The position numbers were made by a program, and so were the translations under genes. The notes under the pieces were generated by a model that searched no databases, had not been told where the DNA came from, and saw nothing but the letters and a program-made list of their open reading frames with translations. Shown piece by piece: positions 14,618 to 54,722 of a stretch of 64,000 nt of DNA. The stretch covers positions 288,001-352,000 of the forward strand of contig CBDETY010000003.1 of the NCBI GenBank assembly GCA_965243025.1, written 5' to 3'. The stretch comes from Candidatus Latescibacterota bacterium. Lineage in GTDB: Bacteria; Latescibacterota; UBA2968; UBA8231. Each line of letters opens with the position of its first letter. Position 1 is the stretch's first letter.

Positions 14618-15544
14618 ATGCGCAAACGTTTCAGCGCAGCAGCGGCGGCGGCAGCCCTGCTCTGCATGAGCACCTTTGCATTCGCTCACGTACCGGCGGA
14701 CTTCATCGGCCTGTTCTGGCAGTGGCCGTCGAACCAGGTGCCGGTCCTCGACGGCGACCTCAGCGAGTGGGCGGTGGTTCCGGACGACTACTCGTGGACC
14801 ACGGACGAGGCCAACGCCAAGTTCTCCCCGGGGGATGGGATGTTCATCCCCAACGACACTCCCGACCTCGCTTCCATCGACTTCAAGGTCACCTTTTCCT
14901 ACGTCGACGGTCAGCCCCGTCTGTATTACGGGTACGAGCGCTTTGACGATGTCTGGACGAGTGACGACGACATCGAGATTTACATCGACGGCGATCACAC
15001 CGGCGGAACCTACTGGTCCGAGGAAGGGATGTCGGACGAGGAGGCTGCGCGCGCCAAAGGCCGCCAGGCCCAGATTTACCACATCTTCGCCGACGACGGC
15101 TTCCGGCTCGGCGGCGATCGCTGGAACTGGTTCTGGATGACCCAGGGTGACTGGCATGAGCAGCCCCCCTGGTCCGACATCGGGTATCAGTACGAGGGGA
15201 CCCCGGGCTCGTTTCAGGAGGTAACCATGTCGGTGGAGTTCTATGAGACAGTCTGGGACGACTTCAACTGGCAGGATCCCGACGGCAGCATTCAGCACGT
15301 GATGAGGGAAGGTGAGATCATCGGCCACGGCATCAACTTGTGGGAGTTCGACGGGACCGAGGAGACCTACCGCACCGATGGCTGCGAATGCGGCGCCACA
15401 TGGTCGGACAACACCGCCGGAGAGACCTGGGTCGACGCCAGTTTCTTCCCCGACTACCTCCTCGACGAAGTGCAGACGGACCTCATAGGCACAGCCGTCG
15501 AAGAGGACAGCTGGGGCAACATCAAGGCCTCGATGAGGAGGTAA
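14618..15544 (+). CDS. Family C secreted protein 1: CBM9/DOMON-like fold, C-terminal TAVEEDSWGNIKA tail (308 aa)
   Basis: GGAGG RBS; signal peptide ending AFA|HV; PVLDGDLSEW and IDGDHTGG motifs; very acidic; paralog of 39596..40534. Fold assignment is inference. Confidence 0.8.
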   Translation: MRKRFSAAAAAAALLCMSTFAFAHVPADFIGLFWQWPSNQVPVLDGDLSEWAVVPDDYSWTTDEANAKFSPGDGMFIPNDTPDLASIDFKVTFSYVDGQPRLYYGYERFDDVWTSDDDIEIYIDGDHTGGTYWSEEGMSDEEAARAKGRQAQIYHIFADDGFRLGGDRWNWFWMTQGDWHEQPPWSDIGYQYEGTPGSFQEVTMSVEFYETVWDDFNWQDPDGSIQHVMREGEIIGHGINLWEFDGTEETYRTDGCECGATWSDNTAGETWVDASFFPDYLLDEVQTDLIGTAVEEDSWGNIKASMRR

Positions 15545-15580
15545 AAGTCCGGCTCTGCCGGAAGAAACAGCAGCAGAACG

Positions 15581-15621
15581 AGAAAAGCGGGGGTGCCGCA
15601 CGGCACTCCCGCTTTCTTGTT
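15581..15621. terminator. Bidirectional intrinsic terminator between convergent genes
   Basis: Stem AAAGCGGGGGTGCC / GGCACTCCCGCTTT with a 4-nt loop, A-rich on the left and T-rich on the right. Confidence 0.8.
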
Positions 15622-15652
15622 GGCCTGAGGGAAGTTTCCTCCAGATTTCCCT

Positions 15653-17302
15653 TCAGCGCAGGTACGTCCTCGCCCCGTATTTCCGCCGCAGTCCGCGCGC
15701 GTACTCGACGAAGCCTCGCCTCAGGGCATCTATCCGCAGGTACCCGCTCGCGCGCCTCCGGGATTCGTCGTCGAACGGCTTCATCTCCGGGGGCCGGTTC
15801 TCGACGACCTTGAAGACGGAAAAGCCGTTCTCCAACCGGACCGGACCCACGACCTGCCCCACCCTGGTTCCTTTCGCCTCCTTGTACAGTTCGCGCAAAG
15901 GGCTGCGTTTGGTGAGCTCGATCAGCCCGTCGTGGTGAGCAACCCCCTCGCGAATGGTGTGCAGGCGGGCGAGCTCCGCGGCGTCCTCTCCGGCGTCGAG
16001 CCTGTCCCGCAGCTGCCGGGCAAGTTCCCTGAAGGCGACGAGGATTTCGATGACAACGACCTCCTCCCACGTCTGGAATTTCTCGGGATGAGCCTCGTAG
16101 TAGGCGAAGGACTCGGCCGCGGAAGGGGGTGGAATCCGGTCGTCGACACCCCGCTTGCGGAGGGTGCTCAGGATCAGGTCGTCCCGTTTGTCCGCAACCG
16201 CCGCTTCGAGCTCGGGATCCTCCTCCCCCCGGGTCAGGCGTTTCATCTCTTCCAGGAATAGCCGTGCGGGTATTGCCCGTTCCCGCAGGAGCGACTCGAG
16301 GAGACCGGGCTGGTCCCTCATTTCCGGATTGAGGTTGGCTTCGGGAACGAGGGTGACGAAATCCTCGAACGACAGGTTCCCCCCTTCGTACAGGCACAGG
16401 ATGCCGTCGGGCAGAGGGGAGGATTCGAGCCCCGCCGCCGCGAACTCACCGAACAGATCGTGGAGCCGGCCGGTTTCACGGGGGGAATAGGCCTCGTCCA
16501 GGGAATCGAGCAGGGCCTTGCGCCGGGCCTTCAGCTTGACCTGGTAGAGTTCGCCGATCCAGGGATGGCGGGAGCGGGCGTCCGCCAGGGAAGGGGAAAC
16601 CGGACCCAGATTGACCGGGATTTCGTCGGTAACCCTGATGACGGCGTAGTTGGTGGCGCCCTTGTAGAAAAACGGGATCGGCTCGGAGAGTTCACCGACC
16701 TCGAGCTCGAAAATGCCGTGCAGGGCCTCGACGATTCCGTCCTTCTTCAGGTACTCCATGCTGTCTCCCCCGGTCTCCCGGGCCGGGTCGTAGAGAGAGC
16801 GCTCCCGCGACATCCCGGCGAAATCCGCCCCGGCGTGCAGGGCCTGAATCGCCTCTTCCGCCTCCTTCCTGGTCGGCAGCAGCATCCCGGAGATGCGCAG
16901 GGCCCGGTCCCGGTGCGTCTCCCTGAAAAAGGCCAGAATCTCCTCTTCGGACAGCGAAACCTTCTGCGTCACTTCGCGGTACACGTACATCTTGATCAAC
17001 TGGTCCTTGCGGAAGCGCTCCACCGCTCTCCCGAGCCAGGCCTCTTCGCCGACCCCCTGTTCCTGCGCCTCCATCAGCAGGGCCTTCTTGTCGACGAGGG
17101 ATCTCAGCAGGGCGCTGTCCGAGTGCGCGGGGGCCTCCGGTGAGAGTGTTCTTTTGACCGATGACCTGAACCGCTCCAGGTCGGCGCGGGTGATCTCCTC
17201 GCCGGCGATCTCCGCAACCACTTCCTCCGGCTCGGCCCCGGCGCGGGTCCATGGGAACAACAGGGCTGCGGCGGACAGGGTCCACCACCATCTGCTGCGC
17301 AT
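15653..17302 (-). CDS. SurA/PrsA-like periplasmic peptidyl-prolyl isomerase/foldase with two rotamase domains (549 aa)
   Basis: Signal peptide MRSRWWWTLSAAALLFPWTRAGA; VVAEIAGEEIT; GADFAGMSRERS...GGD; second domain GEDAAELARLHT...GQVVGPVRLENGFSVFKV. The start could be 17311 or 17323. Confidence 0.8.
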   Translation of the reverse strand: MRSRWWWTLSAAALLFPWTRAGAEPEEVVAEIAGEEITRADLERFRSSVKRTLSPEAPAHSDSALLRSLVDKKALLMEAQEQGVGEEAWLGRAVERFRKDQLIKMYVYREVTQKVSLSEEEILAFFRETHRDRALRISGMLLPTRKEAEEAIQALHAGADFAGMSRERSLYDPARETGGDSMEYLKKDGIVEALHGIFELEVGELSEPIPFFYKGATNYAVIRVTDEIPVNLGPVSPSLADARSRHPWIGELYQVKLKARRKALLDSLDEAYSPRETGRLHDLFGEFAAAGLESSPLPDGILCLYEGGNLSFEDFVTLVPEANLNPEMRDQPGLLESLLRERAIPARLFLEEMKRLTRGEEDPELEAAVADKRDDLILSTLRKRGVDDRIPPPSAAESFAYYEAHPEKFQTWEEVVVIEILVAFRELARQLRDRLDAGEDAAELARLHTIREGVAHHDGLIELTKRSPLRELYKEAKGTRVGQVVGPVRLENGFSVFKVVENRPPEMKPFDDESRRRASGYLRIDALRRGFVEYARGLRRKYGARTYLR

Positions 17303-17372
17303 TTGCACCATTCCTTCCGTCATGGGAAAGCCCCTTCCGGAAGAAGGGGCCCGAGTGAAACAGACCAGTTCT

Positions 17373-20063
17373 TCAGTAGGCGACTGCGATCGTCCTCGCC
17401 GCGTGGGTGTCCTCCACGCCGGTTCCTTCGGTGGCCGTATCCAACCCCAGCCGCACCGTGTACAGCCCCGGAGGGACCAGGTTTCCCGACTCGTCGAGAC
17501 CGTCCCAGGAAATCGCGTAGCGGCCCGCGCTGACGTCGCGGCGTTCCTGGATGCGGCGCAGGAGGCGGCCTGCGAGATCGAAAATCTCCACCTCGGCGGG
17601 GCTGCCGGGGCCCACCATGACCACCGAAAACTCGAACAGGGCGGCGTCGTTGATCCCGTCCCCGTTGGGCGTGAACAGGCCGGGGGCCTGCAATCCCCGA
17701 AGCAGGCCGCCCCCGCCGCCGCTTTCGGCCACCACGAGCAGCGAGTTCCCGTCTGCCAGCCCGGTGGCGTCGCCGACATCGATCCGCTGCCAGAACTCCC
17801 CGGCGGAGTTGCGCAGCCAGGGCTCCAGGCGTCCCCCCGAGGAGTAGAGCGTTGCGGGAAAATCGAGGCGCACGAGGTCCACTCCCGATTCGACAAGGGG
17901 AAACCGCACCAGCAGGCTGTCTCCGAAGCCCGCAACCTCCGCCCCCGCCACCAGGAGTTCGCCCGGATCGTTCGCGGCGGCCTCGAACTGGGAAGCGCGG
18001 CCGGCGTACATCCTCACCCTGTCGCGCGCCGTCTCCTCCTCTCCGAGCACCATGCCCGAAGGCGGCCGGATCAGGAGCTCGTCGAAGCCGGTCTCCAGGG
18101 CGTCGACGGCGACGTGAAGGGTGAAGCGGCGCTCGATTCCGAGAGTATCGACCCGGGTGGGAGCCACTTCTCCGAACAGCCGGCTGGCGACCGGTTCGGC
18201 GAAATGCAGTCGCAACGACCGCAAGGTCGCGGCGGTGTCCTGTCGGTCAGAGAGCAGGGAGGCCCGGATTTTCAGGATCTTTCGCGGCGACGGCGACTCG
18301 ATCAGGCTTCCGGCCGGATCTTCGTAGCGGGTGCTCCACGGCGACCACTCGGGACCCTCCTCGTAAATCACCCTCTTGTCCTTGTTCTTGGTAAAGCTCT
18401 TCTGTCCCCGGCTGTAGAATTTGTCCGCCCCTTCCTGCCCCCGCCCGTAGAGCAACCCGTCGTCCCGGAAGTACAGGGTGTCGGGGATCAGCACGTTTCC
18501 CGTTTTCGTCTGCAGCACCACCTGGGTTCCCGGCGGCGTGTCCGCCTCCCACTCGATGGCGGTCAGGTTGCGGCTCCCAGGCAGCTCGATGGGATTCGAC
18601 AGCAGCTCCACCTCGGGATGGTATCCCGACCCGAACAACTGCATTTCCGTCAGCGGGTGGACGCCGCTGCAGTTCCGGATATCCCAGGCGAAGCGGAAGA
18701 AACGCGCCTTGACGGGATCGAAATCGTGGCGCCTCAGGCGCATGCCGCTCGCGGGAACGCCTGAGAAGCTCTCGTCCTCCGCCCTGTTGTAGACCACTGT
18801 CGCCGTCCAGGCGAAACCGCCGTTGGCCTGCCTCGCCCCGTCGGAGAAATCGAGGCGGTAGCTGCAGTACTCCTGCACCGCGGCGGCGGACCGGAAGTTG
18901 GCAACCATGCGGTAGGCGTCGATCCAGTACCACGAGCCCAGATCGAAGAACAGCTCGTCCTCGTTCCTCTGGTCCCGGGTGTGCAGGGGAAAGTTGAAAC
19001 CCGTCTCCACGTCTCCGTCGAAGAGGATGTCGGCGCTGAAGTCGTGGTCAATGGCGATCTGTCCTCCCCGGTCCGCGACCCCCTGGATGATCTCGTCCCC
19101 GGATCCCCAGACCTCCAGCTCGGCCAGCCTCGGGCGCTCGCGCTCGAAATAGCGGATCGGGCCCCGGCGGGCCGGTTCGAGCTGCTCCCACACCTCCGGG
19201 GAAACGGCGACTTCCCTGCCGTCCGGCAGTCTCTTGGTGTGCTCGACGAACCCCCGGTCCGCCGGTGCGAGGTTCTCCCAGGCCGCCAGTCCCTCTTCCC
19301 CTTCTCCGACGACCCGCCCCCGGTCGAGGTCGCTGTCGCGGACCACGATCTGCAGGAAGCGGCCGAGGGGATCGATCTGGCCTGGGGCGGTCTGCGAGAG
19401 GTCGAGATCGAACACCCGCCGGGTCTTGTTGGGCACCAGGGTCTGAATCACCGGGACGTAATCGCGGACGTCGCCCTGTTTCGCGGTCGGAGGCTTCAGC
19501 CCGCTGGACACCAGCAGATCGAAAAGCAGGAATGGATCCCCCTCCCCCTCGGGGGCGAACCGCAGGACGATGCGGTCGATGATGACCAGGCGTCCGAGGT
19601 CGACGGTGAACCACCATTGCGAGGGCAGGTCGACGTCTCCCGAGGGCGGGGCCGGCTCCCAGAAGGTCGACATGTCTCCGTCGAGCACATTGACGACCTC
19701 GTCGCGGTTGGTTCCGGCCTCGATCCCGTCGAGCAGCTCGATCTGGGACCGGTCCTTGTCCCTGACGTTTTCGGGGGGATGGAGGCGGAGAAAGTCGACG
19801 ATATCGAGGCAGGCGTTGGTGTTTTTTCTCAGCCTGCCGGATCGGACCCCGGCGTCGGTGACTTCGATGGTTCCGGCGGGGAATATCCATTCCCGCCAGA
19901 GGTCCGGCCGGTCGACGACGATCTGGTCTCCCCCGGCCCTTCTGTATCCCTGCTGTCCTCCCGCATCGGTGAGATTCGGGGGCAGGAGAAGGGAAGCGGC
20001 ACCCGCCAGGGAACCGGCGAGAAGGAGGCCGTTCAGGGTCCGGGAACGGATTCTCATTGCCAT
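17373..20063 (-). CDS. Family B secreted protein, B1 subtype: discoidin-like domains + C-terminal FlgD-Ig/T9SS-like domain (896 aa)
   Basis: Signal peptide; LDGDMSTFWEP and VDLGR discoidin-like motifs; WSPWS; GFDELLI; C-terminus FTPNGDGIND...DLAGR...WDG...PPGLY...IAVAY. Confidence 0.8.
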   Translation of the reverse strand: MAMRIRSRTLNGLLLAGSLAGAASLLLPPNLTDAGGQQGYRRAGGDQIVVDRPDLWREWIFPAGTIEVTDAGVRSGRLRKNTNACLDIVDFLRLHPPENVRDKDRSQIELLDGIEAGTNRDEVVNVLDGDMSTFWEPAPPSGDVDLPSQWWFTVDLGRLVIIDRIVLRFAPEGEGDPFLLFDLLVSSGLKPPTAKQGDVRDYVPVIQTLVPNKTRRVFDLDLSQTAPGQIDPLGRFLQIVVRDSDLDRGRVVGEGEEGLAAWENLAPADRGFVEHTKRLPDGREVAVSPEVWEQLEPARRGPIRYFERERPRLAELEVWGSGDEIIQGVADRGGQIAIDHDFSADILFDGDVETGFNFPLHTRDQRNEDELFFDLGSWYWIDAYRMVANFRSAAAVQEYCSYRLDFSDGARQANGGFAWTATVVYNRAEDESFSGVPASGMRLRRHDFDPVKARFFRFAWDIRNCSGVHPLTEMQLFGSGYHPEVELLSNPIELPGSRNLTAIEWEADTPPGTQVVLQTKTGNVLIPDTLYFRDDGLLYGRGQEGADKFYSRGQKSFTKNKDKRVIYEEGPEWSPWSTRYEDPAGSLIESPSPRKILKIRASLLSDRQDTAATLRSLRLHFAEPVASRLFGEVAPTRVDTLGIERRFTLHVAVDALETGFDELLIRPPSGMVLGEEETARDRVRMYAGRASQFEAAANDPGELLVAGAEVAGFGDSLLVRFPLVESGVDLVRLDFPATLYSSGGRLEPWLRNSAGEFWQRIDVGDATGLADGNSLLVVAESGGGGGLLRGLQAPGLFTPNGDGINDAALFEFSVVMVGPGSPAEVEIFDLAGRLLRRIQERRDVSAGRYAISWDGLDESGNLVPPGLYTVRLGLDTATEGTGVEDTHAARTIAVAY

Positions 20064-20149: not shown

Positions 20150-22183
20150 TTAATAGACGAGGGCGACGGCCTCGGTGACCGCGCCGGTCGCCGCATCGGT
20201 TTCCACCTCCAGGCGCAGGAGGTATATCCCCGGAGGCAGCAGGTTCTGCCCGTCGGTCCCGTTCCAGGTTTCGCGGAAGCTGCCGCTTTCCCGCTCGCTG
20301 ACGATCCCCGCCACTTTTCTTCCGGAGAGGTCGTGGAAGGATACCGTTACCGGCACGGACCCGACCATGTTGACGAGCTCGTACTCGATCGCCAGCTCGT
20401 CGTTGATGCCGTCCCCGTTCGGCGTCAGGGCCGGGGTCGAGAGCCGCAGCCCGGCCACCGATTCGGCCTCGATCTCGGTGAGGCTCACGCTCAGACTGTT
20501 TCCGTCGACAAGGGGGTCGGCGTCCCCGGCGGCGATGCGCTGGCGCACCTCCCACTCCCGGGTGCTGTCGAACACCCGGCCCGAGAACACGGTGCCGTAC
20601 TGGAAAACCCGGGCGCGGAAGATGACCTGGATGGGGATCAGCGAGCTCTGCGCGTCCCTGCGGTACTCCTCGGGCAAAGGTATGACGAACCCGTCCGGTC
20701 CCACCTGGGCGAGGGCGCTGACGTCAAGGGTGTCGATCGCCGCCGCGTCGGTGGGGGAGCTCAGGATGACGGTGTCGACGCTCGCCGCCCGGGCGGGAGT
20801 ATCGATCTCGATGCTGTCGAAACCGAGGTCGTCCTCCCCGAACTCCGGAAGCAGGGTGTAGGCGAACCGCACGGTTTCCCCGGACTGCACCCGCACCGGG
20901 GTGATCTCGGCGGCCAGCTCGCTGACGATCGGCGGTTTGCTGACGGTGAACTCGATGTAGTCGAGCCGGCTTCCGGCCTGCACCGGCCGTTGCGAGAGGA
21001 AGTTGGCGCTGAACTGGATGAACCGCCGCGGCAGGTTGGCCACCAGCCGGTCCTCACCCAGGTCGAAATCCAGCGGCGGGGTCCAGAAATCCCAGTTCCG
21101 CGTGTCGGGTGCGATACCCCCGCGCTCACCGGTCTCCAGGTCGAAGTAGGCGTCCCGTGTAAGCGGCTTCCCCGAAGCGTCGAAGCGCGACCGCTCCTCG
21201 CCCCGGAAGGTATTGCGCCAGTACACGTTGGGATCGGTGTCGCTGCCGTTGCGCACGGTGAGCTCCACCACGGCTCCCTCGTCCCGCGAGCCGGACCAGA
21301 TCAGGGTCCCGAGACTGGCTGGTTCCCCGAGATCGAGGATGTTGGAGACATAGGTCGCCTCGGGGGCGAAACCGGAGGCGTAGATCTCGATCTCCGCCAC
21401 CTCCCACTTGCCGACGATGGTCTCGAAGAAGATGTGCCGGGCGGGAACGTTCCCCATGTCGAGCTCGAGCAGGGGAACGGTGTTCTCCAGCATGATGTGG
21501 CGGAGGTTGAAGTTCAACGGGCCGGAGCGCCAGTAGAAGTTCATGTCCCGGGTGCCCTCCTTCAGCGGATCGCCGTCGCTCGTTCCGATCAGGAAGGACT
21601 TCACCGGGCGCTCGTCGAAGTACTTGGGGGTCGGGTACATGCGGATCAGGTGGATGGGAAAGGCGCCGCCGAGGCTGAGCCAGATCGCCTTGGAGTTGCT
21701 CCCGGGAAGGTTTCTGTTGGCGCCGCACTGGCTCCGGGGAAGCCGCGAAGAGCAGCTCGACCCACCCTTGTAGTGGCTGCCGCCGCCGTCGTAAGCCGTG
21801 GACGGATCCCCGTCGAACAGGAAATCGAGCTGCGGCTCGTCCTCGAATCCGTACCCGTCCGACGACTTTATCCAGCCCCCCGGCCGCTCGCGCAGGGTCG
21901 GCGTGAGGTTGACGGTCGGGTCCATCCTTTCGGGACCGATGGAACCGTCGGCGGTCTCGACCAGGAGCGCCCGGCCGAAGCGGTCCTCGTCGACGGGGGT
22001 CCAGGGAAGGGAGACGAACTCGACGTCCCAGTTTTCGGGGAACTCCGGCTCGGGCAGGTCTTCGGCGCCCCCGAGCCGGTAGACGAAGAGGGTGGCGCTC
22101 GTCTCCGCCATCCAGCCGGGACTGAGAGCGACCAGGGCGCCCAGGAGAAGGGCCCCGAACAGGTTGGCAGGCGATCGGTCCAT
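20150..22183 (-). CDS. Family B secreted protein with C-terminal FlgD-Ig/T9SS-like domain (677 aa)
   Basis: ATG 22183 after AAAGGAGG; signal peptide; FDGDPSTAY; EVAEIEIYASGFAPEATYVS; LTPNGDGIND...DLSGR...WNG...PPGIY...VALVY. Confidence 0.8.
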   Translation of the reverse strand: MDRSPANLFGALLLGALVALSPGWMAETSATLFVYRLGGAEDLPEPEFPENWDVEFVSLPWTPVDEDRFGRALLVETADGSIGPERMDPTVNLTPTLRERPGGWIKSSDGYGFEDEPQLDFLFDGDPSTAYDGGGSHYKGGSSCSSRLPRSQCGANRNLPGSNSKAIWLSLGGAFPIHLIRMYPTPKYFDERPVKSFLIGTSDGDPLKEGTRDMNFYWRSGPLNFNLRHIMLENTVPLLELDMGNVPARHIFFETIVGKWEVAEIEIYASGFAPEATYVSNILDLGEPASLGTLIWSGSRDEGAVVELTVRNGSDTDPNVYWRNTFRGEERSRFDASGKPLTRDAYFDLETGERGGIAPDTRNWDFWTPPLDFDLGEDRLVANLPRRFIQFSANFLSQRPVQAGSRLDYIEFTVSKPPIVSELAAEITPVRVQSGETVRFAYTLLPEFGEDDLGFDSIEIDTPARAASVDTVILSSPTDAAAIDTLDVSALAQVGPDGFVIPLPEEYRRDAQSSLIPIQVIFRARVFQYGTVFSGRVFDSTREWEVRQRIAAGDADPLVDGNSLSVSLTEIEAESVAGLRLSTPALTPNGDGINDELAIEYELVNMVGSVPVTVSFHDLSGRKVAGIVSERESGSFRETWNGTDGQNLLPPGIYLLRLEVETDAATGAVTEAVALVY

Positions 22184-25220: not shown

Positions 25221-25231
25221 CTCCTTCACCT

Positions 25232-33107: not shown

Positions 33108-33328
33108 GGCCGGTCTCCGTTGGCTGAACGTCCTTGCGTTGTTGGTGGAGGTCCGGGTATTTACCAAATGCCGAACAGAGATATGGGAGTTGCAGACGGA
33201 ATTACCGGGCGATCCGCACGAACCGCATGGGGTTAAGGTTAATGAAAATCCGCCTCGAAATCGACCCGAAGTCAACGCCGCGGCCGATTTCCGGAAAACC
33301 AGCTTTACCTGTTGTTATTGATACGATT

Positions 33329-38288: not shown

Positions 38289-38290
38289 CC

Positions 38291-40534: not shown

Positions 40535-40627
40535 AATGCCGGCGTGGCCAGGTGAAGGCGCCCGCCCCCTGACCGGGGCTGAAAAGGCGCCGGCGGTCAC
40601 GGCGTAACCGTAACAACCGCAACTGAG

Positions 40628-40661
40628 AGAAGGGGGGGGAGTTTCCCCCCCTTCTTTGTTT
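40628..40661 (+). terminator. Intrinsic terminator/attenuator between the family C gene and the first family B gene
   Basis: Stem AGAAGGGGGGG / CCCCCCCTTCT followed by TTGTTT. Confidence 0.7.
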
Positions 40662-40680
40662 GGTGACGGGAGCGAAACGG

Positions 40681-43230: not shown

Positions 43231-43256
43231 AGGCCGGTGGAGTGGAGGGAGTAAAG

Positions 43257-46200: not shown

Positions 46201-46643
46201 CCCTGGTGCGCAACGCCGCCGGCTCCGGCGTTTTCCAGCGCGTCGAGTCCGAGGGGCGGGACGCCACCGAGCTGGTGGACAGCGGCACGGCGCGGCCGGG
46301 TATTCTGCAGGCCGGCGAGATCGTCGGCGGGATCCGCGTTCCGGAGGTGTTCACCCCGAACGGAGACGGGGTCAACGACCTGCTCCATATCGAGTTCACC
46401 GTCCTGACGATCCGCGAGGACCGCCCGGTCGAGGTCGCGCTCCACGACCTCTCGGGCCGGCGGATAGCGAAGGCGACGCCGCGGGGCGGGGCCGGCAAAA
46501 CCCGGAGCGGGACCGTGAGCTTCACCTGGGACGGCAGGGCCGGAGAAGGGATGGCCCCGCCCGGGATCTACATCGCCCGAGTGCGGCTGAATACGGACGC
46601 GGAGGATTTCGAGGCGGTGCGGCTGGTCAACGTCGTCTATTGA
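43257..46643 (+). CDS. Family B secreted protein, B1 subtype, with acidic DxDGD repeats (1128 aa)
   Basis: ATG 43257 after GGAGGGAG; signal MRRLLAAAAIATALATEAPA; DGDLTTFWEP, VDLGR, DLGATFWID; WSAWSEPY; FTPNGDGVND...PPGIY...VNVVY. Confidence 0.82.
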   Translation: MRRLLAAAAIATALATEAPAQTGEAFEFDGTGRRIVVDRETHWRSWVYQNNLVRDVRAPMDSTGLFDFSEGVVPRYFPAVRNYVLDREEFSFVDNVRFRGQTVTVTGQITALSNDALAGRVGDGDLTTFWEPSSADFNAEGLRNWQLLVDLGRVVFADSIVVHFPPAGTGEDLGDAPKLFTVEVSMGIQAGAREYHFDVVGRQSVSGSQRRFVFPLRPLDQADADLDGEPDFEGTFVHFVRLAVFDSDLDAAELIGEGESGREAYEALAPERRGMRIFQRRTAGDFVKRIDPLLGDGGDTLQTAEETYLSLPDPERGPIQYFKRELPRVSEIEVIGRGPNLAYRPQRRAGAAYEDGGKGAPLNAVDGVYLTNWNGNAWDLSFSSGFAGHGDLVFGTMWLDLGATFWIDRILLGMVPVSETETGGILFGWYLDGSDGTVLRALDMRTPEDFIQLEKSLEWRDLVSDVYKDNNTARVRMMAESFELRKLRFFQQRNDDPTGRFSGTYGAAGHFNELQMFGRGYPAEVSFTSPEIVLLPGVAREEAAGVRERRVLSEIRWEAEAVVREVDPQTGQAVERTGPLDLNPAVELWLQTRTSDTIDSLFSYFQVATTGTKRRAEVEVADYEALVELWEVFRTWEALPESAQITLRDHSDGDDDGDGVANEDPIDGLDNDGDKLIDEDAGEGETGGPQSIRGAGTIELTRHQRRQDDDGDGAEDEDPIDGIDNDGDFLVDEDGKKAAQPRQEAERVVTPVFAGWSAWSEPYKAIGTEARAEITSPSPRKFLQARVTIRSEDPEVTARIRSLRVDLAVPISTDLAGELAVLTDAGRQLSGLAAAPEDYRAPQGVEPLERTPYAFFVRAAGPDPNAPEAAGGFDEILLLTPSQARLTGLRLGRVAVEDLPGAESKAERRAEGSVFERAFLPGEGDGRFRDGEGNELIATASGDSLLLRFPGSVNAGFSEKENALVELRFETRTLRAGSEFAALVRNAAGSGVFQRVESEGRDATELVDSGTARPGILQAGEIVGGIRVPEVFTPNGDGVNDLLHIEFTVLTIREDRPVEVALHDLSGRRIAKATPRGGAGKTRSGTVSFTWDGRAGEGMAPPGIYIARVRLNTDAEDFEAVRLVNVVY

Positions 46644-46778
46644 GCCGGGTATGGTACCTGCGCGCGTAAATGAGCGTTGCGAACGAGGATGTCTGATGCG
46701 GGATGCAGGGCGGCCGAATTCAGGCGGAAGTGCGCGCGCCGGCATTTGTATGCCGGCATTCACAAGGGAGGGTTTAGC

Positions 46779-49556
46779 GTGAACGAGCGAGGCAAGGGAG
46801 CCGGCGGGCTCCTCGTGCTCCTTGCATTCTGTACCCTGGCGGCGGCCCCCGTTTCCTCCCGGGAGGACACGGGAACCCGGCTGGGGGTGCGCCGCGGGGG
46901 GGAGGTGACCTTCGAACCCTACGGCCCCGGCGTCCTGTTCGGGGCTCTCGACCCGGCCGTGAAGAGGTGGTACGTGCCCCAGGAGCTGTTCAACGACTTC
47001 GGCTGGAACCAGTGGGAGTACACCAACTACGCCCGCCGGCAGTTCCAGCGCTACGTCGACTCCGACATCGAGGGGGACTACTACTACGACGTCTACGGCC
47101 GCTTCCTGACCAAGGGCTGGCTGCTGTTCAACTGGACGGTGTCCGAGCCTGAGGCCGCCGGCAGCCGGCTGTTGAAGACGGGGCAGTTCAGCCAGTGGTT
47201 CAGCAACCTCGTGGTCGCCTCGGACTCGAAGGGCCAGTACTTCGCCGCGGCGACCGTGGGCAACCAGATCCGCACCACCCTGACGCCGCTGACCTTCTCC
47301 AAGCCGCTTTTCGACGGCATCCAGATGGACATGGCCTCCGACAAGTACAGGGTCACCGCCATCGCCTCGCGGCCGAGCGGCTTTCGCAGCCTTGCCGGCG
47401 CCCCCAACGAGAGGTCGAACGTCACCAACCTCCTCGGCGGCCGGGCGGCGGCGCAGATCGGGGACTTCGTCGAGCTCGGCGTTACCTACGTCAACGCCTT
47501 CAACGCCCGCACCCGCGGCCAGGCGTTCCAGGGCAATCCCTTCCGCGGCGCCCTGACGGAGGCCCAGAACGCCGACATCACGCAGGTGCAGATCCGCCTG
47601 AGCGACGACTCCCCCCAGGACCCGGCGGGGGCGGCCTTCTTCCTCGAAGAGGTGATCATCACCGACAAGGACGGCAACAGGATCTCCAACCGCCGGCGCC
47701 TCGAGCAGAAGGACGGCAGCCTGAGCCCCGTGCTCGAGTACTCTCCCATCATCGAGGGGGGCTTCCAGCGCGAGGGTTTCCGCACCGCCGACGGCCGCGA
47801 GACGATCACCCTGCGCTACGAGTTCGACGGACCCGACTACCGGGCCGCGGGGGTAGGGCCCCAGCCGGCGGAGATCGCCGCGGTCGAGTTCCGCCTGCTG
47901 CTGGCCAACGACTACCGCATCGACGTCACCTCGAACAACCAGACCAACCAGCTCAACCAGCCGGTGTTCCTGTCCGAGGGCATGCCGGAACGGACCATAC
48001 GGGCTCCGGGCAACGTCAGGGACGGCTCCAACCAGCGCTTCGTCCGCATCGAGTACGGGCTGCCCACGGCCAACGAGATCTACGGCTTCACCCTCGAGTC
48101 GACGGGCGCCCTGGGTTTCGACGTCAACGCCGAGTGGGCCCGCAACCGGCGGCACAAGCGGTTTCCGAGGTTCGCCGAAAACGACGCGACGAAGAACCTC
48201 CACGCGGTGGAGGAATCCGACGCCTGGATGATCAACGTATCGCGGCAGTCTTACCCGTTCTTCCTCTTCGGCGAGGCGTACAGCATGGCCCCGGACTACA
48301 GCACCAGCTCGTACCTCGCCAGCCAGCGCGGCGACACCGGCCCGGTGGACTACGACTCGCAGTCGCAGGGGGTGTTCGAGCTGGTCGACGACAACGACGA
48401 CCAGGACCGCCTCCCCGACTGGCAGCGGGTGGGATCCGGCCTCTCCGCCGACCGCTTCGTGTTCCCGGGCTGGGACGAGAACAACGACTTCATCGCCGAC
48501 TTCAACCAGAACAACGTCGACATCGTGCGGCCCAACCTGAAGCCGGACTGGGAGGAGCCCTTCCTGCGCTACAACGTCGACCGGCCCGAGTACCTGTTCG
48601 GAGTCGACATGAACAACAACGGCGTCGCCGACCGCTTCGAGAACGACGACGAGCCCGACTACCCGTACAAGCGGGACCGCCGCGGCTTCAACGTCTACGG
48701 AGGCGCCTTCCTCGGACCCTGGACGCGGCTGACCGTGGGCCGCCTGGACGAGAGACAGCTCGCCGACGACCGCGCCAACGAGTCGACCTACGCCCTGCTG
48801 ACCTACGAGCGCGACTTCGCCGGCGCCGGGCAGGTGCGCGTCTTCGAGAACCTGCGCCGCGTCAGGGACGACATAAAGGACAACCTGCTGGTCTGGCACA
48901 TCGCCGACGGCATCGCCGGCGAGATCGTCCCCCGCGTCGACCCGCTGCCGATGCGCGACGCCTGGGCGAACACCCTGTACGCCCAGTTCGACCTCGGGCG
49001 CTGGGAGTCGCTGAACTTCACCAGCAAGGTCAAGCACGAGTTCATCCGCCAGGTCGGCTTCGAGGAGTTCCGCGCCGAAAACAGGGTGCTCGCCAGCGAG
49101 GACGTGCGCGAAACCGCGAGCTTCTTCGGCCTCGTCAACAAGGTGGACTACACCCGGGAGTACCGCGGCCTGCTGGTTCAGCCCCGCTGGAAAAGCGAGT
49201 TCCAGCGCAGCGCGCCCTCCCTGAAGGAGAGCCAGTTCGAGCGCGCGACGACGGAGCTGCGGGAGTCGGTTTTCCTGATCGTCCGCATGCCGGTCCTGTC
49301 GCGCAGCTCGGTGCAGCTCGGGGCCGAGTACCTGTGGATGAAACAGTTCCGGGACAGCGCCAGGAACACCCTGGCCGGCTCGCCTCGCAGCGAACTGGTC
49401 GGCGCCCTGCAGGTGCTCAACCGCACCCCTTACCAGGGGTACGAGATCTTCACCGAGTACGGCCTGCGCGTCTCGAGGATCGACATCGAGTTCCTCGAAG
49501 GGGCGCGCACCGAGACGTTCCTCTTCTTCGCCATGTACGCCGGTTTCGGGAGCTGA
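46779..49556 (+). CDS. Family A exported protein (925 aa)
   Basis: GTG 46779 after AAGGGAGGG; signal peptide; GPGVLFGALDPAVKRWYVPQEL, IRTTLTPLTFSKP, YGLPTAN, GWDENNDFIADFNQN; ends FFAMYAGFGS. Confidence 0.82.
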   Translation: MNERGKGAGGLLVLLAFCTLAAAPVSSREDTGTRLGVRRGGEVTFEPYGPGVLFGALDPAVKRWYVPQELFNDFGWNQWEYTNYARRQFQRYVDSDIEGDYYYDVYGRFLTKGWLLFNWTVSEPEAAGSRLLKTGQFSQWFSNLVVASDSKGQYFAAATVGNQIRTTLTPLTFSKPLFDGIQMDMASDKYRVTAIASRPSGFRSLAGAPNERSNVTNLLGGRAAAQIGDFVELGVTYVNAFNARTRGQAFQGNPFRGALTEAQNADITQVQIRLSDDSPQDPAGAAFFLEEVIITDKDGNRISNRRRLEQKDGSLSPVLEYSPIIEGGFQREGFRTADGRETITLRYEFDGPDYRAAGVGPQPAEIAAVEFRLLLANDYRIDVTSNNQTNQLNQPVFLSEGMPERTIRAPGNVRDGSNQRFVRIEYGLPTANEIYGFTLESTGALGFDVNAEWARNRRHKRFPRFAENDATKNLHAVEESDAWMINVSRQSYPFFLFGEAYSMAPDYSTSSYLASQRGDTGPVDYDSQSQGVFELVDDNDDQDRLPDWQRVGSGLSADRFVFPGWDENNDFIADFNQNNVDIVRPNLKPDWEEPFLRYNVDRPEYLFGVDMNNNGVADRFENDDEPDYPYKRDRRGFNVYGGAFLGPWTRLTVGRLDERQLADDRANESTYALLTYERDFAGAGQVRVFENLRRVRDDIKDNLLVWHIADGIAGEIVPRVDPLPMRDAWANTLYAQFDLGRWESLNFTSKVKHEFIRQVGFEEFRAENRVLASEDVRETASFFGLVNKVDYTREYRGLLVQPRWKSEFQRSAPSLKESQFERATTELRESVFLIVRMPVLSRSSVQLGAEYLWMKQFRDSARNTLAGSPRSELVGALQVLNRTPYQGYEIFTEYGLRVSRIDIEFLEGARTETFLFFAMYAGFGS

Positions 49557-49561
49557 CGGTC

Positions 49562-50308
49562 ATGACGGTTCGAGCCATCTGTCGGGCCGCATGCGCGGCG
49601 GCGGTCTTTCTCGCCGGCGCCTGCGCCTGGAAACCTTACGCCGGGGAGCTGCGCGCCAGCTCCGAGGAGCGGCAGGCGGGCGGCACCACCGTTGCCGACG
49701 ACGGCACGGTCACCTTTGTCCGCGACCGCCTCGAGGTGCGGCTGCGGCCGGTCAGCGACGCCGAGCTCGAGCGCCAGTTCGGGGGCGGCGGCCAGGGTCC
49801 GGAAAGCGAGAACCCGTTCACCTTCGGGGGCACCCGGGACGTCTACTCCGGCAGCCGCCAGCAGCGGTTCACGGTGTTCCTGCTCGGGATCAAGAACTAC
49901 CAGTATCCCAAGGTCCGCCTCGACGGGGAGGTCGTCGTCGAAGCGGACAACGGCCGCAAGTACTACGATCTCTCGGAAAGCCAGCTGGACCGCTACTTCC
50001 GCGCCTACGCCATCGGCTACCGCGGCAACGAGTACGGGGTGTACAAGGAACGCCGGGCGGTCCTGCAGTCGACGATGTTCACCCGTGCGGAGGTCTTCAG
50101 CGGCCAGGAGACGGAGGGGTACCTGCTGTTCGAGCCGTTGCACGGCGACGTTTCTGAGATGACGGTCGTCGTCAGGAACCTCGTGGTCCGCTTCGACTAC
50201 CGGGGGGAGCCGGTCGAGTCGATCGAGGCGCGCTTCCGCTTCGAGCGCGACCTCGGGCGGCAGTACCCCGACGGCACCGTGAAGCTGTCGGAAGGGGGAG
50301 GGGAATGA
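49562..50308 (+). CDS. Hypothetical lipoprotein (248 aa)
   Basis: ATG 5 nt after the family A stop; lipobox VFLAGAC; ENPFTFG and FTVFLLGIKNYQYPKV; its stop overlaps the PPIase start. Confidence 0.78.
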   Translation: MTVRAICRAACAAAVFLAGACAWKPYAGELRASSEERQAGGTTVADDGTVTFVRDRLEVRLRPVSDAELERQFGGGGQGPESENPFTFGGTRDVYSGSRQQRFTVFLLGIKNYQYPKVRLDGEVVVEADNGRKYYDLSESQLDRYFRAYAIGYRGNEYGVYKERRAVLQSTMFTRAEVFSGQETEGYLLFEPLHGDVSEMTVVVRNLVVRFDYRGEPVESIEARFRFERDLGRQYPDGTVKLSEGGGE

Positions 50309-51741
50309 GGCCGGGTCTCCTGCCGGCCGGACTCCTGTGGCTGGCGCTCCTTGCCGGTTGCGGGAGCCGCGGACAGGAAGAGGGGCCGCTGGTCGAGGTC
50401 GGGGAAGAGGGGATCGCCGCCGCCGACTTTCGCGAGTACCGCGACCGCCTGCCGGAGAGCTACCGGTCGCCCGCTGGGGAGGATGGGGTCAGGAAGCTGC
50501 TGCAGGCGCTGGTCGACCGCGAGGTCATGGTGCTGGAGGCCGAGCGGCTCGGCTATCACGAGGACCCGGAATTCCGCGCCCGGCGCCATAGGCTGACCGT
50601 CGAGCGGCTCATGCAGGAGGTGCAGCACGACGAGTTCGGCGGAGACCTCCGGGTCACCGAGGAGGAGATCCGCAGGATCTACGAAGAGCGCCACTGGAAC
50701 AGGAGGATCCTGCCGGCGCACATCGTCTGCGCCTCGCAGGAGGAGGCGCGCGAAGTCATAAGGCTCCTCGACGAGGGGCGGGATTTCCACGAGCTGGCGC
50801 GCGAGCGGTCGCTGGCCGCCGACGCCGCCGGCGGGGGGTTTCTCGATCAGTACTTCGCCCCCGGGGATGCGATGGGGAACCTGGTGGAGGGAGTCTACGG
50901 ACTTCCCGTGGGGGCGTACACGCCGGAGCCGCTGAAGACCAACGACGGCTGGGAGGTGGTCAAGGTCCTCGACGAGGAGGAGGTGTCCCTGGAGCAGGTG
51001 CGCCCCCGGCTCGCCCGCGCCGCCCACAGGGAGAAGTTCCTCGCCCTGCGCAGGGAGTTCGTCGCGCGCCTGCAGGGGAAGTTCGGGCCTGCTGAAGGGG
51101 GCGCTTCCGGTTCCGGGGGAGCGGCGCCGGAATCGCTCCTGGTCGCCGAGGCGCGCTCCCGCGGCATGGACCAGTCCCCTGAGTACCTGCAGTTCGAGCG
51201 CTCCCTCTACGAGCGCATGCTGATTACCCTGCTGCGGCGCAGGCAGGTCCTGGAGAACATCCCGGTCAGCGGGGAAGAGGTGGAGTCGGCGTACCTGCAG
51301 GAGCAGGAGGAGTTCCGCCTTCCGGCGCGCGTCCAGGGAACGCGCCTGCTGGTCGGGTCCGCCGAACAGGGCCGCGACGTCGCCGGACGCCTCCGCGCCG
51401 GGGAAGAGCCGGAGGTCGTGGCCCGGGAACTGGGGCTGACGCTGGGTCACATACACATCCCCGAGACCGACCCGGCATACCGGAGGTTCGCCGGCGCCGA
51501 GGCCGGCGACGTGGTCGGGCCGGTGGAGGTGCAGTCCCGGTTCGAGGTCCTCCACGTCGATGCCCTCACACCGGCGCGCCTGCGCCCCCTCGAGGAGGTG
51601 CGGCACATGGTGCGCCACCGCCTGCGGCTGCGCCGCATCAACGAGGCGTTCGAGACCTATATCCGCGGCTTGCGCGGCCGCTACGAGGGCGAGGTGACCT
51701 GGCACGACGACCGCATCCGCCGGCTGGCCGAGGGGGCCTGA
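50305..51741 (+). CDS. SurA/PrsA-like peptidyl-prolyl isomerase lipoprotein (478 aa)
   Basis: Lipobox LLAGC; AHIVC...GRDFHELARERS...GGFL rotamase motif; second degenerate rotamase GEEPEVVARE...GDVVGPV...RPLEEVR. Confidence 0.85.
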   Translation: MRPGLLPAGLLWLALLAGCGSRGQEEGPLVEVGEEGIAAADFREYRDRLPESYRSPAGEDGVRKLLQALVDREVMVLEAERLGYHEDPEFRARRHRLTVERLMQEVQHDEFGGDLRVTEEEIRRIYEERHWNRRILPAHIVCASQEEAREVIRLLDEGRDFHELARERSLAADAAGGGFLDQYFAPGDAMGNLVEGVYGLPVGAYTPEPLKTNDGWEVVKVLDEEEVSLEQVRPRLARAAHREKFLALRREFVARLQGKFGPAEGGASGSGGAAPESLLVAEARSRGMDQSPEYLQFERSLYERMLITLLRRRQVLENIPVSGEEVESAYLQEQEEFRLPARVQGTRLLVGSAEQGRDVAGRLRAGEEPEVVARELGLTLGHIHIPETDPAYRRFAGAEAGDVVGPVEVQSRFEVLHVDALTPARLRPLEEVRHMVRHRLRLRRINEAFETYIRGLRGRYEGEVTWHDDRIRRLAEGA

Positions 51742-51746
51742 CACCG

Positions 51747-54722
51747 ATGCCGGACCGACGCGGACTCCCCCGCTTCCACCTCGCCGGCGGGCTCGCCCTC
51801 GCCGGGGCTCTCGCGGTCCTGCCCGGCGCCCTCGGAGCCGGCGCCTGGCGCATAGGGGACGGCGGCCAGCCCTGGAGGACGTTTCCCGTCAGCTACCGCC
51901 TCGACGCCGGCGAGGTGTTCAGGCACGACTTCATCTGGGGCGGCCCGCACGCGGTGGAGATCGTCGTCGACGACGACGGCGACGGCCTGGTCGACGAGGA
52001 TCCGGTGGAGATTGTCGACAACGACGGCGACGGGTTGTTCAACGAGGACCCGGCGGACGGCATCGACAGCGACCGCGACGGCCTGGTCGACGAGGACGGG
52101 GTCGAGCCGCAGTTCGACAACGACGGGGACGGCCTGCTCAACGAGGACGGGATGCGCACCGGCGGGGTGGTGTACGAACCGGTCCTGCGCGCCCAGATGG
52201 AGAGTCCTCCTTTCGGACGGTACCCCACGCCGGAGGCGGCAGCCGGCGACCCGGAAGGCCGCGGGACCGGCTGGGGCGACGGCGGCGGGTACGGCTGGGG
52301 GGACGACGACCGCGACGTCAACTTCAACGAGGACGGCATCGACGGGGTCGACAACGACGGCGACGGCCTCGTCGACGAGGATCCCCCCGGGCCCCCGGTG
52401 CCGCTGCCCGGAAGCCTGCTGCAGGTGGTGTTCGCCTACGACGGCGACGGGTACACCGAGGCCGAGCGCCGGGCAATCCCCTTTTCCTGGGACCCGGGCA
52501 GCTCCCTCTTCGTCGGAGAAGGGCCCCGCGGGGAGGTCACCGCCGTTGCCGGGGAACGCCGCCTCAACCCCAGCGACTGGCTGCGGCCGATCCGCCTCGA
52601 CGAAACCCGGAACATCAGCCTGCTGACGGCCGACCGCTTCTACAGCGGGGAGTTCTTCACCGATCCGACCAACTCGTCCAACTGGAACTCCGGGACCGGG
52701 GGCAGCGCCCACGCCGACGCCAGGGGCCACGGCATAGTGGCCGACGGCGACATCTTCACGGCGCGGACCGCCGTCGGCAGGGCGTTCTGGGGGGGCGGGT
52801 ACCACATCCACTTCAACGCCCTCTTCTGGCTCGACCTGATCCGCCTGAGGCCGCGCCCCGACTTCCCGGAGCGCACCCCGACCACCTTCGACATCTGGTA
52901 CGCCGGCGACAGGGAGAGGCATTTCCGGACCAACATCCTTCTCGGTGAGCTGGTGACCAAAATGGACGTCCGCGATCCGATCGTTCCCCGCCAGACGGAC
53001 CGGATCAGGCCGGCGATCAAGGAGTACCGGTTCGGGGAGGGAGAGGAGTTCGACCCGGTGAAGGCGCGCATCCTGCAGTTCGAGAGCTGGATGTCGTCGG
53101 TGGAGTCGTGGGAGCTGGCCGAGTTCCAGGTATACGGACACGGCTACGCCCTCGACGCGGCGTACGCGACCGAGATCATCGACGTGGGCACGGCGCAGCC
53201 GCGGTTCCGCCGCTACTTCGACCCGAACGACCCGGACCGGCCCATCGCCATGGAAAAGATCCAGACCTTCGACGGCGACGACGACGGGAGCATTTCCGCT
53301 TCCGAGCAGGCTACCGCCATGCTCGCAGGGCAGTTCGACCCCGGGGAGCCCGGCAATCCCGTCACCTGGGGGCGGGTGCGCTGGCACGGGCGGATCGAGG
53401 GGGACGGGAATGCCGAGATCCGGGTGCGGTCCGGTTCGACCCTCGATACGCGCATCTACCAGCGCAAGGTGGGCCGGGGATTGCTGTCTCCCTTCGCCGG
53501 CTCCCCCATCGTCGCGGACTGGCCGGCCCCGGGAAGCCGCCTCGACGTCACCGCGTTCCTTCAGCTTTCGGGATTGCAGCGTCCGCTGGTGAGGGACCTG
53601 CCGCTCAACCTCGAGACGGATCTCGACGGCGTTCCGGGGGGATGGACGCCGTGGTCGGCGCCCCTCCCCTTCGCGGCGGGCCTGGTTGAGGCGGAAGCGG
53701 AATCGGGCGGCGTGGCGCTGCCGCTGCCGCCCCTTCACCGCTACATCCAGTTCCGCGTCGATTTCGAGAGCGGCGAGCACAGCGGAGTCAGTCTCGACTA
53801 TATCGAGTTCGATTTCGCCGATCCCGTCGTCAGCCGCGGCGTTCTTGCCGAGATCTTCCCGGCGACCGCGGACGCCCTCGGAAGTCCGCTGCCGTTCCGC
53901 TACGTACTCAGGCCGGACCTGGCCCCCGGCGATGCCGGTTTCGACCGCATCGAGATCGCCGTGCCGTCCCCCGGGGCCGCTATCGATTCGCTGCTGGTCG
54001 ACGATCTGCGCTGGGAGCGCATCCTGCCCGCCGCTCCGGACGGCCTCTCCGAAACCGCTGCCTCCGAGTGGATACGGGAGCGGCTGGCGAGCCGCGCCTG
54101 GCTCGACACCGCCCAGGTCAGCGGCGACCGGTTCGCCGCGGCCACCTGGTTCGACCCGGAGTCGGGATCACACAGGCTCGCCCTCAAGACCCGCCTGCTC
54201 ACCTCGGCGGACTTCCCCCGGGGCCAGGACCGCGAGATCGAAGTGGCCCTGACGACCCCCCTGTTCAGGCTCCTCACCGGATTCGACAGCTGGGTCTCGA
54301 ACCAGGCCGCCGGGACGGACCTGAAGCAGCCGACCCAGCCCGGCAACGCCTCCGACCGCCTGCCGTCGGATGCGGTGCAGGTTACTGTCCCCTCCGCCGG
54401 GCGGGCCCTGGAAATCCGCGGCTTCGCTCCCAATCCGTTCACCCCGAACGGCGACGGCGTCAACGACGCCACCAGGTGGACTCTCGACCTCTTCATGCTG
54501 ACTTCCGCGGCCGGGGTCTCGGTGAGCATCCACGATCTCGACGGGCGCCAGGTGCGCCGGCTCGAGGAGCTGGCATCGTCCGGCCGGCTCACCGTCGAGT
54601 GGGACGGCCGCGACGGGACGGGTGAGCGTGTCCTCCCGGGGATCTACCTCTACCGGCTGTTCGTCGACAGCGACACCGGGGAGGACAACGAGCTGCTGGG
54701 AACGGTAGCCGTAGCCTACTAG
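51747..54722 (+). CDS. Family B secreted protein with N-terminal acidic DxDGDGLxxED repeats (991 aa)
   Basis: Signal peptide; six D(N/D/S)DxDxxxxED units; ELAEFQVYGHGY; WTPWSAPL; GFDRIEI; PNPFTPNGDGVND...PGIY...VAVAY. Confidence 0.82.
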   Translation: MPDRRGLPRFHLAGGLALAGALAVLPGALGAGAWRIGDGGQPWRTFPVSYRLDAGEVFRHDFIWGGPHAVEIVVDDDGDGLVDEDPVEIVDNDGDGLFNEDPADGIDSDRDGLVDEDGVEPQFDNDGDGLLNEDGMRTGGVVYEPVLRAQMESPPFGRYPTPEAAAGDPEGRGTGWGDGGGYGWGDDDRDVNFNEDGIDGVDNDGDGLVDEDPPGPPVPLPGSLLQVVFAYDGDGYTEAERRAIPFSWDPGSSLFVGEGPRGEVTAVAGERRLNPSDWLRPIRLDETRNISLLTADRFYSGEFFTDPTNSSNWNSGTGGSAHADARGHGIVADGDIFTARTAVGRAFWGGGYHIHFNALFWLDLIRLRPRPDFPERTPTTFDIWYAGDRERHFRTNILLGELVTKMDVRDPIVPRQTDRIRPAIKEYRFGEGEEFDPVKARILQFESWMSSVESWELAEFQVYGHGYALDAAYATEIIDVGTAQPRFRRYFDPNDPDRPIAMEKIQTFDGDDDGSISASEQATAMLAGQFDPGEPGNPVTWGRVRWHGRIEGDGNAEIRVRSGSTLDTRIYQRKVGRGLLSPFAGSPIVADWPAPGSRLDVTAFLQLSGLQRPLVRDLPLNLETDLDGVPGGWTPWSAPLPFAAGLVEAEAESGGVALPLPPLHRYIQFRVDFESGEHSGVSLDYIEFDFADPVVSRGVLAEIFPATADALGSPLPFRYVLRPDLAPGDAGFDRIEIAVPSPGAAIDSLLVDDLRWERILPAAPDGLSETAASEWIRERLASRAWLDTAQVSGDRFAAATWFDPESGSHRLALKTRLLTSADFPRGQDREIEVALTTPLFRLLTGFDSWVSNQAAGTDLKQPTQPGNASDRLPSDAVQVTVPSAGRALEIRGFAPNPFTPNGDGVNDATRWTLDLFMLTSAAGVSVSIHDLDGRQVRRLEELASSGRLTVEWDGRDGTGERVLPGIYLYRLFVDSDTGEDNELLGTVAVAY

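Follow-up and report, generated by a model that had tools for sequence, protein, structure and literature searches.

Predicted giant outer-membrane barrels of Latescibacterota are accompanied by a conserved ExbB/ExbD-type motor operon

The window analysed here, a 64,000-nucleotide stretch of a Candidatus Latescibacterota genome (contig CBDETY010000003.1, positions 288,001 to 352,000), carries two operon-like gene runs assembled from the same five protein families: predicted giant outer-membrane barrels (family A), secreted multidomain proteins that share a conserved domain at the C-terminus (CTD; family B, including the subfamily B1), CBM9-like secreted proteins (family C), SurA/PrsA-like peptidyl-prolyl isomerases (PPIases) and probable lipoproteins (family L). 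We found that the two runs belong to a conserved envelope module with a conserved core operon across the phylum, in line with the original prediction, made from the DNA letters alone, of an undescribed system. Its scale exceeds the two operons then proposed, as the genome holds 24 A clusters and the motor genes, a giant tetratricopeptide-repeat protein (TPR) and a transducer-like protein (T) lie outside the window. No description of such a module, and no pairing of Latescibacter with type IX secretion (T9SS), was found in the literature searched, with subscription papers and supplements outside the search. Our preferred reading, which we put forward tentatively, is that both operons represent satellite cassettes belonging to a proton-motive-force-driven capture-and-import machine.

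The core operon follows the order B-X-A(1-3)-TPR-ExbB-ExbD(1-2)-T-L, where X is a small barrel and the TPR protein comprises ~1100 aa. It was identified in this genome (C3:6172345-6191172) as well as in G031, G011, G008, G007, G022, G016 and G030, with some parts missing or located elsewhere in single genomes; the order is displayed by genomes with few B genes. A second motor locus of this genome reads C-L-X-TPR-ExbB-ExbD-T (3502055-3510723), and three further A clusters contain TPR, T and L with ExbB absent. In G030, a cassette of the window type (C-L-B-B-B-A) runs straight into TPR-ExbB-ExbD-T, without an X gene. The T protein is composed of one transmembrane helix, a basic linker and a DUF4159 C-terminus. 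Its helix contains a histidine that was invariant in 11 of 11 aligned sequences (19 of 21 in an automatic count, in which some windows lay outside the helix). A histidine in the transmembrane helix is described as a mark of motor-coupled transducers of the TolA/TonB type in a survey whose main text mentions neither DUF4159 nor Latescibacter (PMC12204202). The AgmX/PglI cut-off was passed by five of the six long L proteins. The copy number of the parts varies: G008 has 16 A and 15 T matches and a single B, A multiplying together with T and C, and G007 exhibits 42 T-family matches and six giant TPR genes, the expanded part thus differing by lineage.

A profile search with A yielded 1244 relatives among 50%-identity representatives, and the named homologs listed were labelled Latescibacterota, Gemmatimonadota/Gemmatimonadetes, Handelsmanbacteria or uncultured bacterium. 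Within the phylum, A was present in 107 of 168 genomes and absent from 61; it occurred in all 75 other genomes of its own family and in 0 of 56 genomes of three sister families. We compared 17 A-positive with 22 A-negative genomes, hand-picked to span families. TPR (19 candidates scored per genome) and T were each detected in 15 of 17 A-positive genomes and L in 16 of 17, versus none of the 22 A-negative ones, and C was observed in 16 of 17 versus one weak match in 22. Likewise, the second half of the B core was found in 15/15 A-positive and 0/61 A-negative genomes, eight of the latter having one weak match to the first half, and the carboxy-terminal SWGxIK tail of family C, discussed below, in 8/13 (one marginal) versus 0/22. 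In contrast, SprA was present in 24/25 A-positive and 22/22 A-negative genomes (46 of the 47 phylum genomes tested). The distribution of the motor operon and of the tail therefore follows A rather than SprA. A role of TPR-ExbBD as a replacement of GldLM in powering T9SS is disfavoured, since all 22 A-negative genomes have SprA and none of them has this TPR, T or L.

The linkage of A and B anticipated from the window is retained in other genomes, where B adjoins A in 76 of 79 loci. These foreign loci are best matches (80 best matches of the A1 scan), several of them from the same genome; the 37 loci of at least 20 kb contained B in 37 cases, C in 29 and a PPIase in 28. In the present genome we counted 42 A open reading frames (ORFs; including one fragment and one stand-alone domain), 91 B, 121 C (fragments included), 9 L and 21 PPIase-like ORFs, 16 of them strong. 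The 24 A clusters are adjoined by B in 22 cases, C in 17, PPIase in 14 and L in 7. Within 10 kb of A we found 58 of the 91 B genes, versus a mean of 9.0 in 2000 rotations, four of which reached 58, whereas other CTD proteins showed no linkage (5 of 87; mean 8.7). The proposed rule of one foldase and one B1 per operon holds for both window operons; genome-wide it is not universal, as the 13 same-strand runs containing A and a PPIase carry one B1 in nine cases, two in two and none in two.

Structure prediction for the A protein Ad (confidence values in Table 1) resulted in 23 long antiparallel strands plus short N-terminal ones, corresponding to a barrel of ~24-26 strands as read from the secondary-structure string, not from coordinates. 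The model features an inserted beta domain at residues ~218-400 and an acidic loop at ~477-606, in which many invariant A residues are located; strand parity places both the domain and the loop on the outer face. Foldseek searches with this model returned LptD, SlpA, MtrB and ushers at TM-scores not exceeding 0.31 against the query, and VIA-align retrieved generic barrels with Z-scores up to 13.8. A sequence-profile search of solved structures with A gave no hit at E<=1, a second search two chance-level rows, and the ESM Atlas unnamed clusters only, with DUF6029 at 0.89 as no more than a lead. In the window cassettes, Pfam and NCBIfam assign names solely to the PPIases, the C-terminal domain of B (FlgD_ig, CHU_C) and one F5/8C domain, leaving the window A, C and L proteins without any match. 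A soluble enzyme is at odds with these models, whose structural matches are confined to large outer-membrane barrels, and A is predicted to be an outer-membrane barrel without a close solved relative. It lacks features that define PorP/SprF proteins, TonB receptors, Glt barrels and SlpA.

The nearest solved structure by TM-score and length is Deinococcus SlpA, which resembles A as a very large barrel with acidic, probably metal-binding insertions and has been described as trimeric, its 30-stranded barrels carrying insertions that bind metal (PMC9388160). A structural SlpA/OmpM-like layer, consisting of trimeric barrels with metal-binding loops and a lectin coat, could be envisaged, and we give it a slim chance. 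SlpA reached the top TM-score (0.29-0.31) and the longest VIA-align alignment (416 residues, rmsd 8.0, Z 11.4), a trimer would accommodate the triplets of A genes, and weak matches to SlpA_C (PF21620) were observed in 5/12 and 2/8 divergent A proteins. However, these matches extend over ~80 residues and all remain below the cut-off (best 8e-7, 28.3 versus 35 bits; precomputed on 4/44 hits), the TM-score is only 0.3 at 9-14% identity, and A has fewer predicted strands. Neither the domain scan nor the Ad model revealed an SLH domain, coiled-coil stalk or long helix in A. Moreover, a layer would leave the motor genes unexplained and has to accommodate the absence of A from over a third of the phylum genomes (see above).

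Phylogenetic analysis of 65 A proteins (FastTree; supports not displayed) resolved two subfamilies among the A genes that stand in tandem in satellite cassettes, arranged beta then alpha in 9/9 cases, and the two A triplets of this genome correspond position by position. The same order was seen by best hit for 16 of 17 adjacent A pairs in other genomes, where a Bb-like gene precedes 19/22 beta-type A genes and 0/83 other A genes. Within family B, the B1 proteins form a clade (28/29, support 0.93). The fixed beta-alpha pairs, the position of Bb before beta-type A and the B1 clade together point to hetero-oligomeric A barrels with matched B partners that would bind to them. In combination with the core operon, A is probably a motor-coupled hetero-oligomeric barrel.

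The B proteins end in an FTPNGDGxND domain with a terminal Tyr in 86/91 cases, which supports a type-B-like CTD in this family, with CHU_C and TIGR04131 matches that are weak (cut-offs reached by one of six window B proteins for CHU_C, 29.1 versus 27, and by none for TIGR04131). Another 87 ORFs match the FTPNGDGxND domain alone, 73 of which end in Arg or Lys and are mostly type-A-like. The model of Ba is all-beta and multidomain (Table 1), and a profile search of solved structures with its sequence returned CBM32/F-type lectins and FlgD. The search of the full genome for T9SS genes suggested by the original prediction revealed SprA, PorV-family genes and three C25 (PorU-like) proteins. No GldM or GldN match was obtained, with the control profiles silent as well, and GldK and GldL were not searched for. 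As a separate observation, the genome, which is 96% complete, combines ~80 type-A-like CTD proteins and SprA with no GldM or GldN match that would account for the energy supply of its T9SS. We also considered a system working without T9SS, as the A-positive G031 gave no SprA match; an assembly gap is likelier, because PorV-family genes are present there together with two C25 proteins and 47 CTD matches.

Family B resembles T9SS type B cargo of Flavobacterium johnsoniae and Porphyromonas gingivalis in its Sec-type N-terminus and FTPNGDGxND CTD, in the presence of SprA, PorV-family and PorU-like proteins and in the X gene that follows B in core operons. It differs in the terminal Tyr of the CTD, the sub-cut-off TIGR04131 scores, the lack of PorP/SprF, GldM and GldN matches, the 900-aa A barrel as neighbour in most cassettes and the ExbBD motor operon alongside. 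X is a PorV/PorP-like small barrel of 300-350 aa that matches PorV_fam in 6/6 and T9SS_PorP_fam in 5/6 proteins, all below cut-off, and directly follows B in eight core loci of seven genomes; the window cassettes and the G030 cassette are devoid of it. In Flavobacterium, type B cargo is described to require linked shuttles, and a single shuttle can be shared among orphan type B CTDs (PMC12618676).

These data bear on the earlier proposal that A serves as a passive cognate shuttle or anchor for the B CTD, equivalent to PorP/SprF. The adjacency of B to A in this genome and in the foreign loci, the tracking of A subfamilies by B subfamilies, the linked shuttles of Flavobacterium and the X-free cassettes would all fit such a role, as would the lack of any PF11751 (PorP/SprF) match in the genome, for which the control was also silent everywhere. 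On the other hand, A exceeds such shuttles about threefold in size, a passive anchor leaves the motor genes unexplained, and a separate PorV/PorP-like X follows B, while orphan CTDs may share a shuttle. The copy number of A is moreover independent of that of B in G008. Because linked shuttles serve type B cargo, orphans share them and A multiplies with T and C in G008, the PorP/SprF analogy applies more readily to the pair of B and X than to that of B and A. X, not A, is the likely CTD shuttle, and we regard a passive shuttle role of A as improbable.

The lectin-like character assigned to family C is supported at the profile level: C matches 1i82 (E=0.0011) and 19/30 of its Atlas hits carry CBM9_1; carbohydrate binding is predicted. 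The TAVExxSWGxIK tail was found on 91/121 C ORFs and on 24 ORFs outside the family, which have varied N-terminal parts. Its T-A-V-E cleavage-like motif is shared with type A CTDs in 18/65 cases only. The tail is unlike the short T9SS signals of Prevotella, described as beta-sheets of 43-55 residues (PMC11969387). Some C-family proteins end in a PKD or similar domain in place of the tail (L060:7576-8673 in G011; G000 C3:2573354), most of them in family f10, in which the tail hardly occurs. Furthermore, ~100 family C genes lie apart from A in tandem arrays of their own, many of them fragmented (e.g. G000 C3 494863-505962).

The tail raises an alternative in which transport would run outward. Here, the ~15-residue SWGxIK tail would act as a sorting signal for a new motor-driven secretion and display route, in which ExbBD, the DUF4159 transducer and TPR operate on A hetero-oligomers that, with the aid of the PPIase, translocate or anchor tailed proteins, parallel to a motor-less T9SS and serving more than 100 proteins of this genome. 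The 115 tailed ORFs, the variety of N-termini among those outside C and the restriction of the tail to A-positive genomes, with SprA in all 22 A-negative ones, are consistent with such a route. A stand-alone 193-aa copy of the A inserted domain, predicted to face outward, also ends in the tail (G000 C3:6496526-6497104, L023), and in size the barrel is comparable to LptD and ushers. The single foldase in each cassette is reminiscent of chaperone-usher operons. Conversely, the tail found no match in 5/13 A-positive genomes and one marginal match in another, the G011 C protein ends in PKD instead, and dozens of barrel paralogs exceed the need of one signal. Similar tails presumably occur in Poribacteria and other phyla, and among the matches listed no named A relative falls outside Latescibacterota-type labels. 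We consider export by this route rather unlikely, both for the tail as a signal and for the system as a whole, although it is the strongest rival to our preferred reading.

The composition of the core operon is also reminiscent of the Agl-Glt/Agl-Nfs machinery of Myxococcus, with one ExbB, two ExbD and a TonB-like protein alongside a giant TPR protein and several barrels (up to three consecutive ones), as well as an AgmX/PglI domain, weak matches to GltG/GltJ and surface proteins of lectin-like type. By this analogy, a surface motor would move adhesins or polymers for gliding or coat assembly. The barrel, transducer and surface proteins nevertheless belong to other families: the scans connect A, T (DUF4159) and L to no Glt family beyond the short C-terminal domain, which resides on the lipoprotein. 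Whole-protein GltG/GltJ scores amount to 17-45 against cut-offs of 650/450 and only the AgmX/PglI C-terminal domain passes (TPR scanned on Pfam only). The heavy paralog expansion, amounting to dozens of barrels, is hard to reconcile with motility, and we know of no motility data on these uncultured cells. Taken together, we judge a surface motor of this kind very unlikely.

We favour energised capture and import because a motor, a transducer, dozens of barrels and varied lectin-like partners resemble such systems. In this scheme, the predicted giant A barrels would assemble into mixed oligomers, which keep B and C, the predicted sugar-binding proteins, at the cell surface and pass bound ligands, probably glycans, inward. 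B may exit through a reduced T9SS (SprA) on the X barrel and dock on its cognate A, and C may dock or be sorted via its SWGxIK tail, while the PPIase would fold the proteins of its own cassette. ExbB/ExbD would drive T and the TPR scaffold, which in turn would act on A, with few motor operons serving all cassettes in trans. SusC/SusD polysaccharide utilization loci (PULs) with TonB transport offer a close parallel to this favoured import scheme in that they comprise many paralogous cassettes of barrels with carbohydrate-binding-like surface proteins, as well as ExbB/ExbD and a TonB-like transducer. They differ in several aspects, however, as A does not correspond to a TonB receptor with 22 strands and a plug, B and C do not resemble SusD lipoproteins, none of B, C and L has a match to a SusD family, T ends in DUF4159 instead of TonB_C, and the cassettes show fixed heteromeric barrel pairs and a dedicated PPIase, with no hydrolases or regulators in those of the window.

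Several observations weigh against capture and import. Ligand, interactions and transport direction are predictions. The domain scan identified no glycoside hydrolase or regulator in the window cassettes, unlike in PULs, and the size-nearest barrels (LptD, the FimD usher, SlpA, MtrB) are not importers of such a kind. No confident plug is visible in the Ad model, the N-terminus of which is poorly modelled, and Pfam/NCBIfam-type scans of window and divergent A proteins gave no Plug or TonB-receptor match, while this genome has 28 ordinary plug-domain matches. DUF6785 genes, coding for membrane proteins, are not clearly enriched near A (9/49 strong matches, mean 4.9, reached in 144/2000 rotations). 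The A-negative genomes come from four families, so that the co-occurrence, which does not amount to a statistical test, may reflect one or two losses. In this genome a TPR gene lies within 10 kb of 4/24 A clusters and ExbB within 10 kb of 1/24, so that coupling of the window cassettes to the motor is inferred. A replacement of ordinary TonB receptors by A was rejected, as such receptors are present in 32/32 genomes.

Within the window, all 15 genes were recovered with the order and strands originally described (Table 1). One C gene on the plus strand converges on the minus-strand run A-B-A-A-B-B1-PPIase (33107 to 15653), followed by the plus-strand run C-B-B1-A-L-PPIase-B (39596-54722). The tight coupling was equally evident, with gene spacings of -4 nt (Ac/Bb, L/PPIase2), -1 nt (Bb/Ab), 11 nt (Ab/Aa) and 5 nt (Ad/L, PPIase2/Bd), the remaining within-run gaps ranging from 26 to 146 nt. 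The start of Ac at 33107 is an inferred CTG codon. Sequence identity supports real paralog families, with 35-59% for A over ~950 aa, 22-36% for B (local alignments), 32% for C and 26-30% for the PPIases. Of the secretion signals ascribed to all 15 proteins, a hydrophobic N-terminal stretch was present in 15/15 (hydropathy scan only), and a canonical lipobox was restricted to PPIase2 (LAGC), L having LAGAC and PPIase1 no Cys.

Table 1 Genes of the two window cassettes (positions within the window).
Gene	Position	Strand	Description
C1	14618..15544	+	CBM9-like secreted protein; C-terminal TAVExxSWGxIK tail
PPIase1	15653..17311	-	SurA/PrsA-like foldase with two parvulin domains; Rotamase_2 E=1e-19; no lipobox Cys
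B1a	17373..20057	-	B1 subfamily; F5/8C domain, B core, type-B-like CTD with terminal Tyr
Ba	20150..22183	-	Family B; F5/8C lectin domain and CTD within a predicted all-beta multidomain fold; model pLDDT 92.7
Aa	22245..25220	-	Family A barrel (predicted), alpha subfamily
Ab	25232..28090	-	Family A barrel (predicted), beta subfamily; in tandem with Aa
Bb	28090..30315	-	Family B subfamily placed directly upstream of beta-type A genes
Ac	30312..33107	-	Family A barrel (predicted), beta subfamily; recent paralog of Ab (59% aa, 73% nt)
C2	39596..40534	+	CBM9-like secreted protein; SWGxIK tail
Bc	40681..43230	+	Family B; CTD with terminal Tyr
B1b	43257..46643	+	B1 subfamily; acidic DxDGDG-type repeats; CTD with terminal Tyr
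Ad	46779..49556	+	Family A; predicted ~24-26-strand barrel, inserted beta domain, conserved acidic loop; pLDDT 81.8, pTM 0.83
L	49562..50308	+	Probable lipoprotein of no known family; lacks the AgmX/PglI (TonB_C-like) domain of core-operon paralogs
PPIase2	50305..51741	+	Lipoprotein foldase; lipobox LAGC
Bd	51747..54722	+	Family B; acidic repeats; CTD with terminal Tyr

The two operons are separated by an ASPIC/UnbV gene, a DUF6785/DUF6784 membrane protein gene (35364-37316, +; 51 profile matches in the genome) and an IS1-family transposase gene (38598-39473, +) located just upstream of the plus-strand operon. DUF6785 was considered as a fixed part of the module and set aside; its proximity to A is not significant here, and it is present in 14/37 long foreign loci (no control). 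The cassettes are flanked by three FG-GAP/ASPIC-UnbV proteins, one of them TPR-fused, and a TPR protein at 6334-8046, 9985-14486 and 33134-35281; related genes also occur near a G010 cassette. A small ORF (38022-38288, +) contains a tandem 21-nt repeat (~38100-38170) and is coiled-coil-like. Downstream of the second operon, positions 56608-56712 repeat the final 105 nt of the Bd gene (54636-54740) as an 87% copy, so that part of a B C-terminus lies stranded there, and 55082-56395 (+) encodes a DinB_2 and FGE-sulfatase protein, which by its domain order we take to be EgtB-like.

The five families A, B, C, PPIase and L account for ~280 ORFs of this genome, and Latescibacterota are widespread, with record titles naming sponges, seawater, deep lakes and groundwater. 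The cognate pairs (beta-alpha A, Bb with beta-type A, B with X), together with the A-negative relatives, make the system testable. If borne out, and regardless of the direction of transport, it would constitute a third use of an ExbBD-type motor at a large outer-membrane barrel, and would add a barrel family and a transducer class that are both new, along with a candidate for a new sorting signal.

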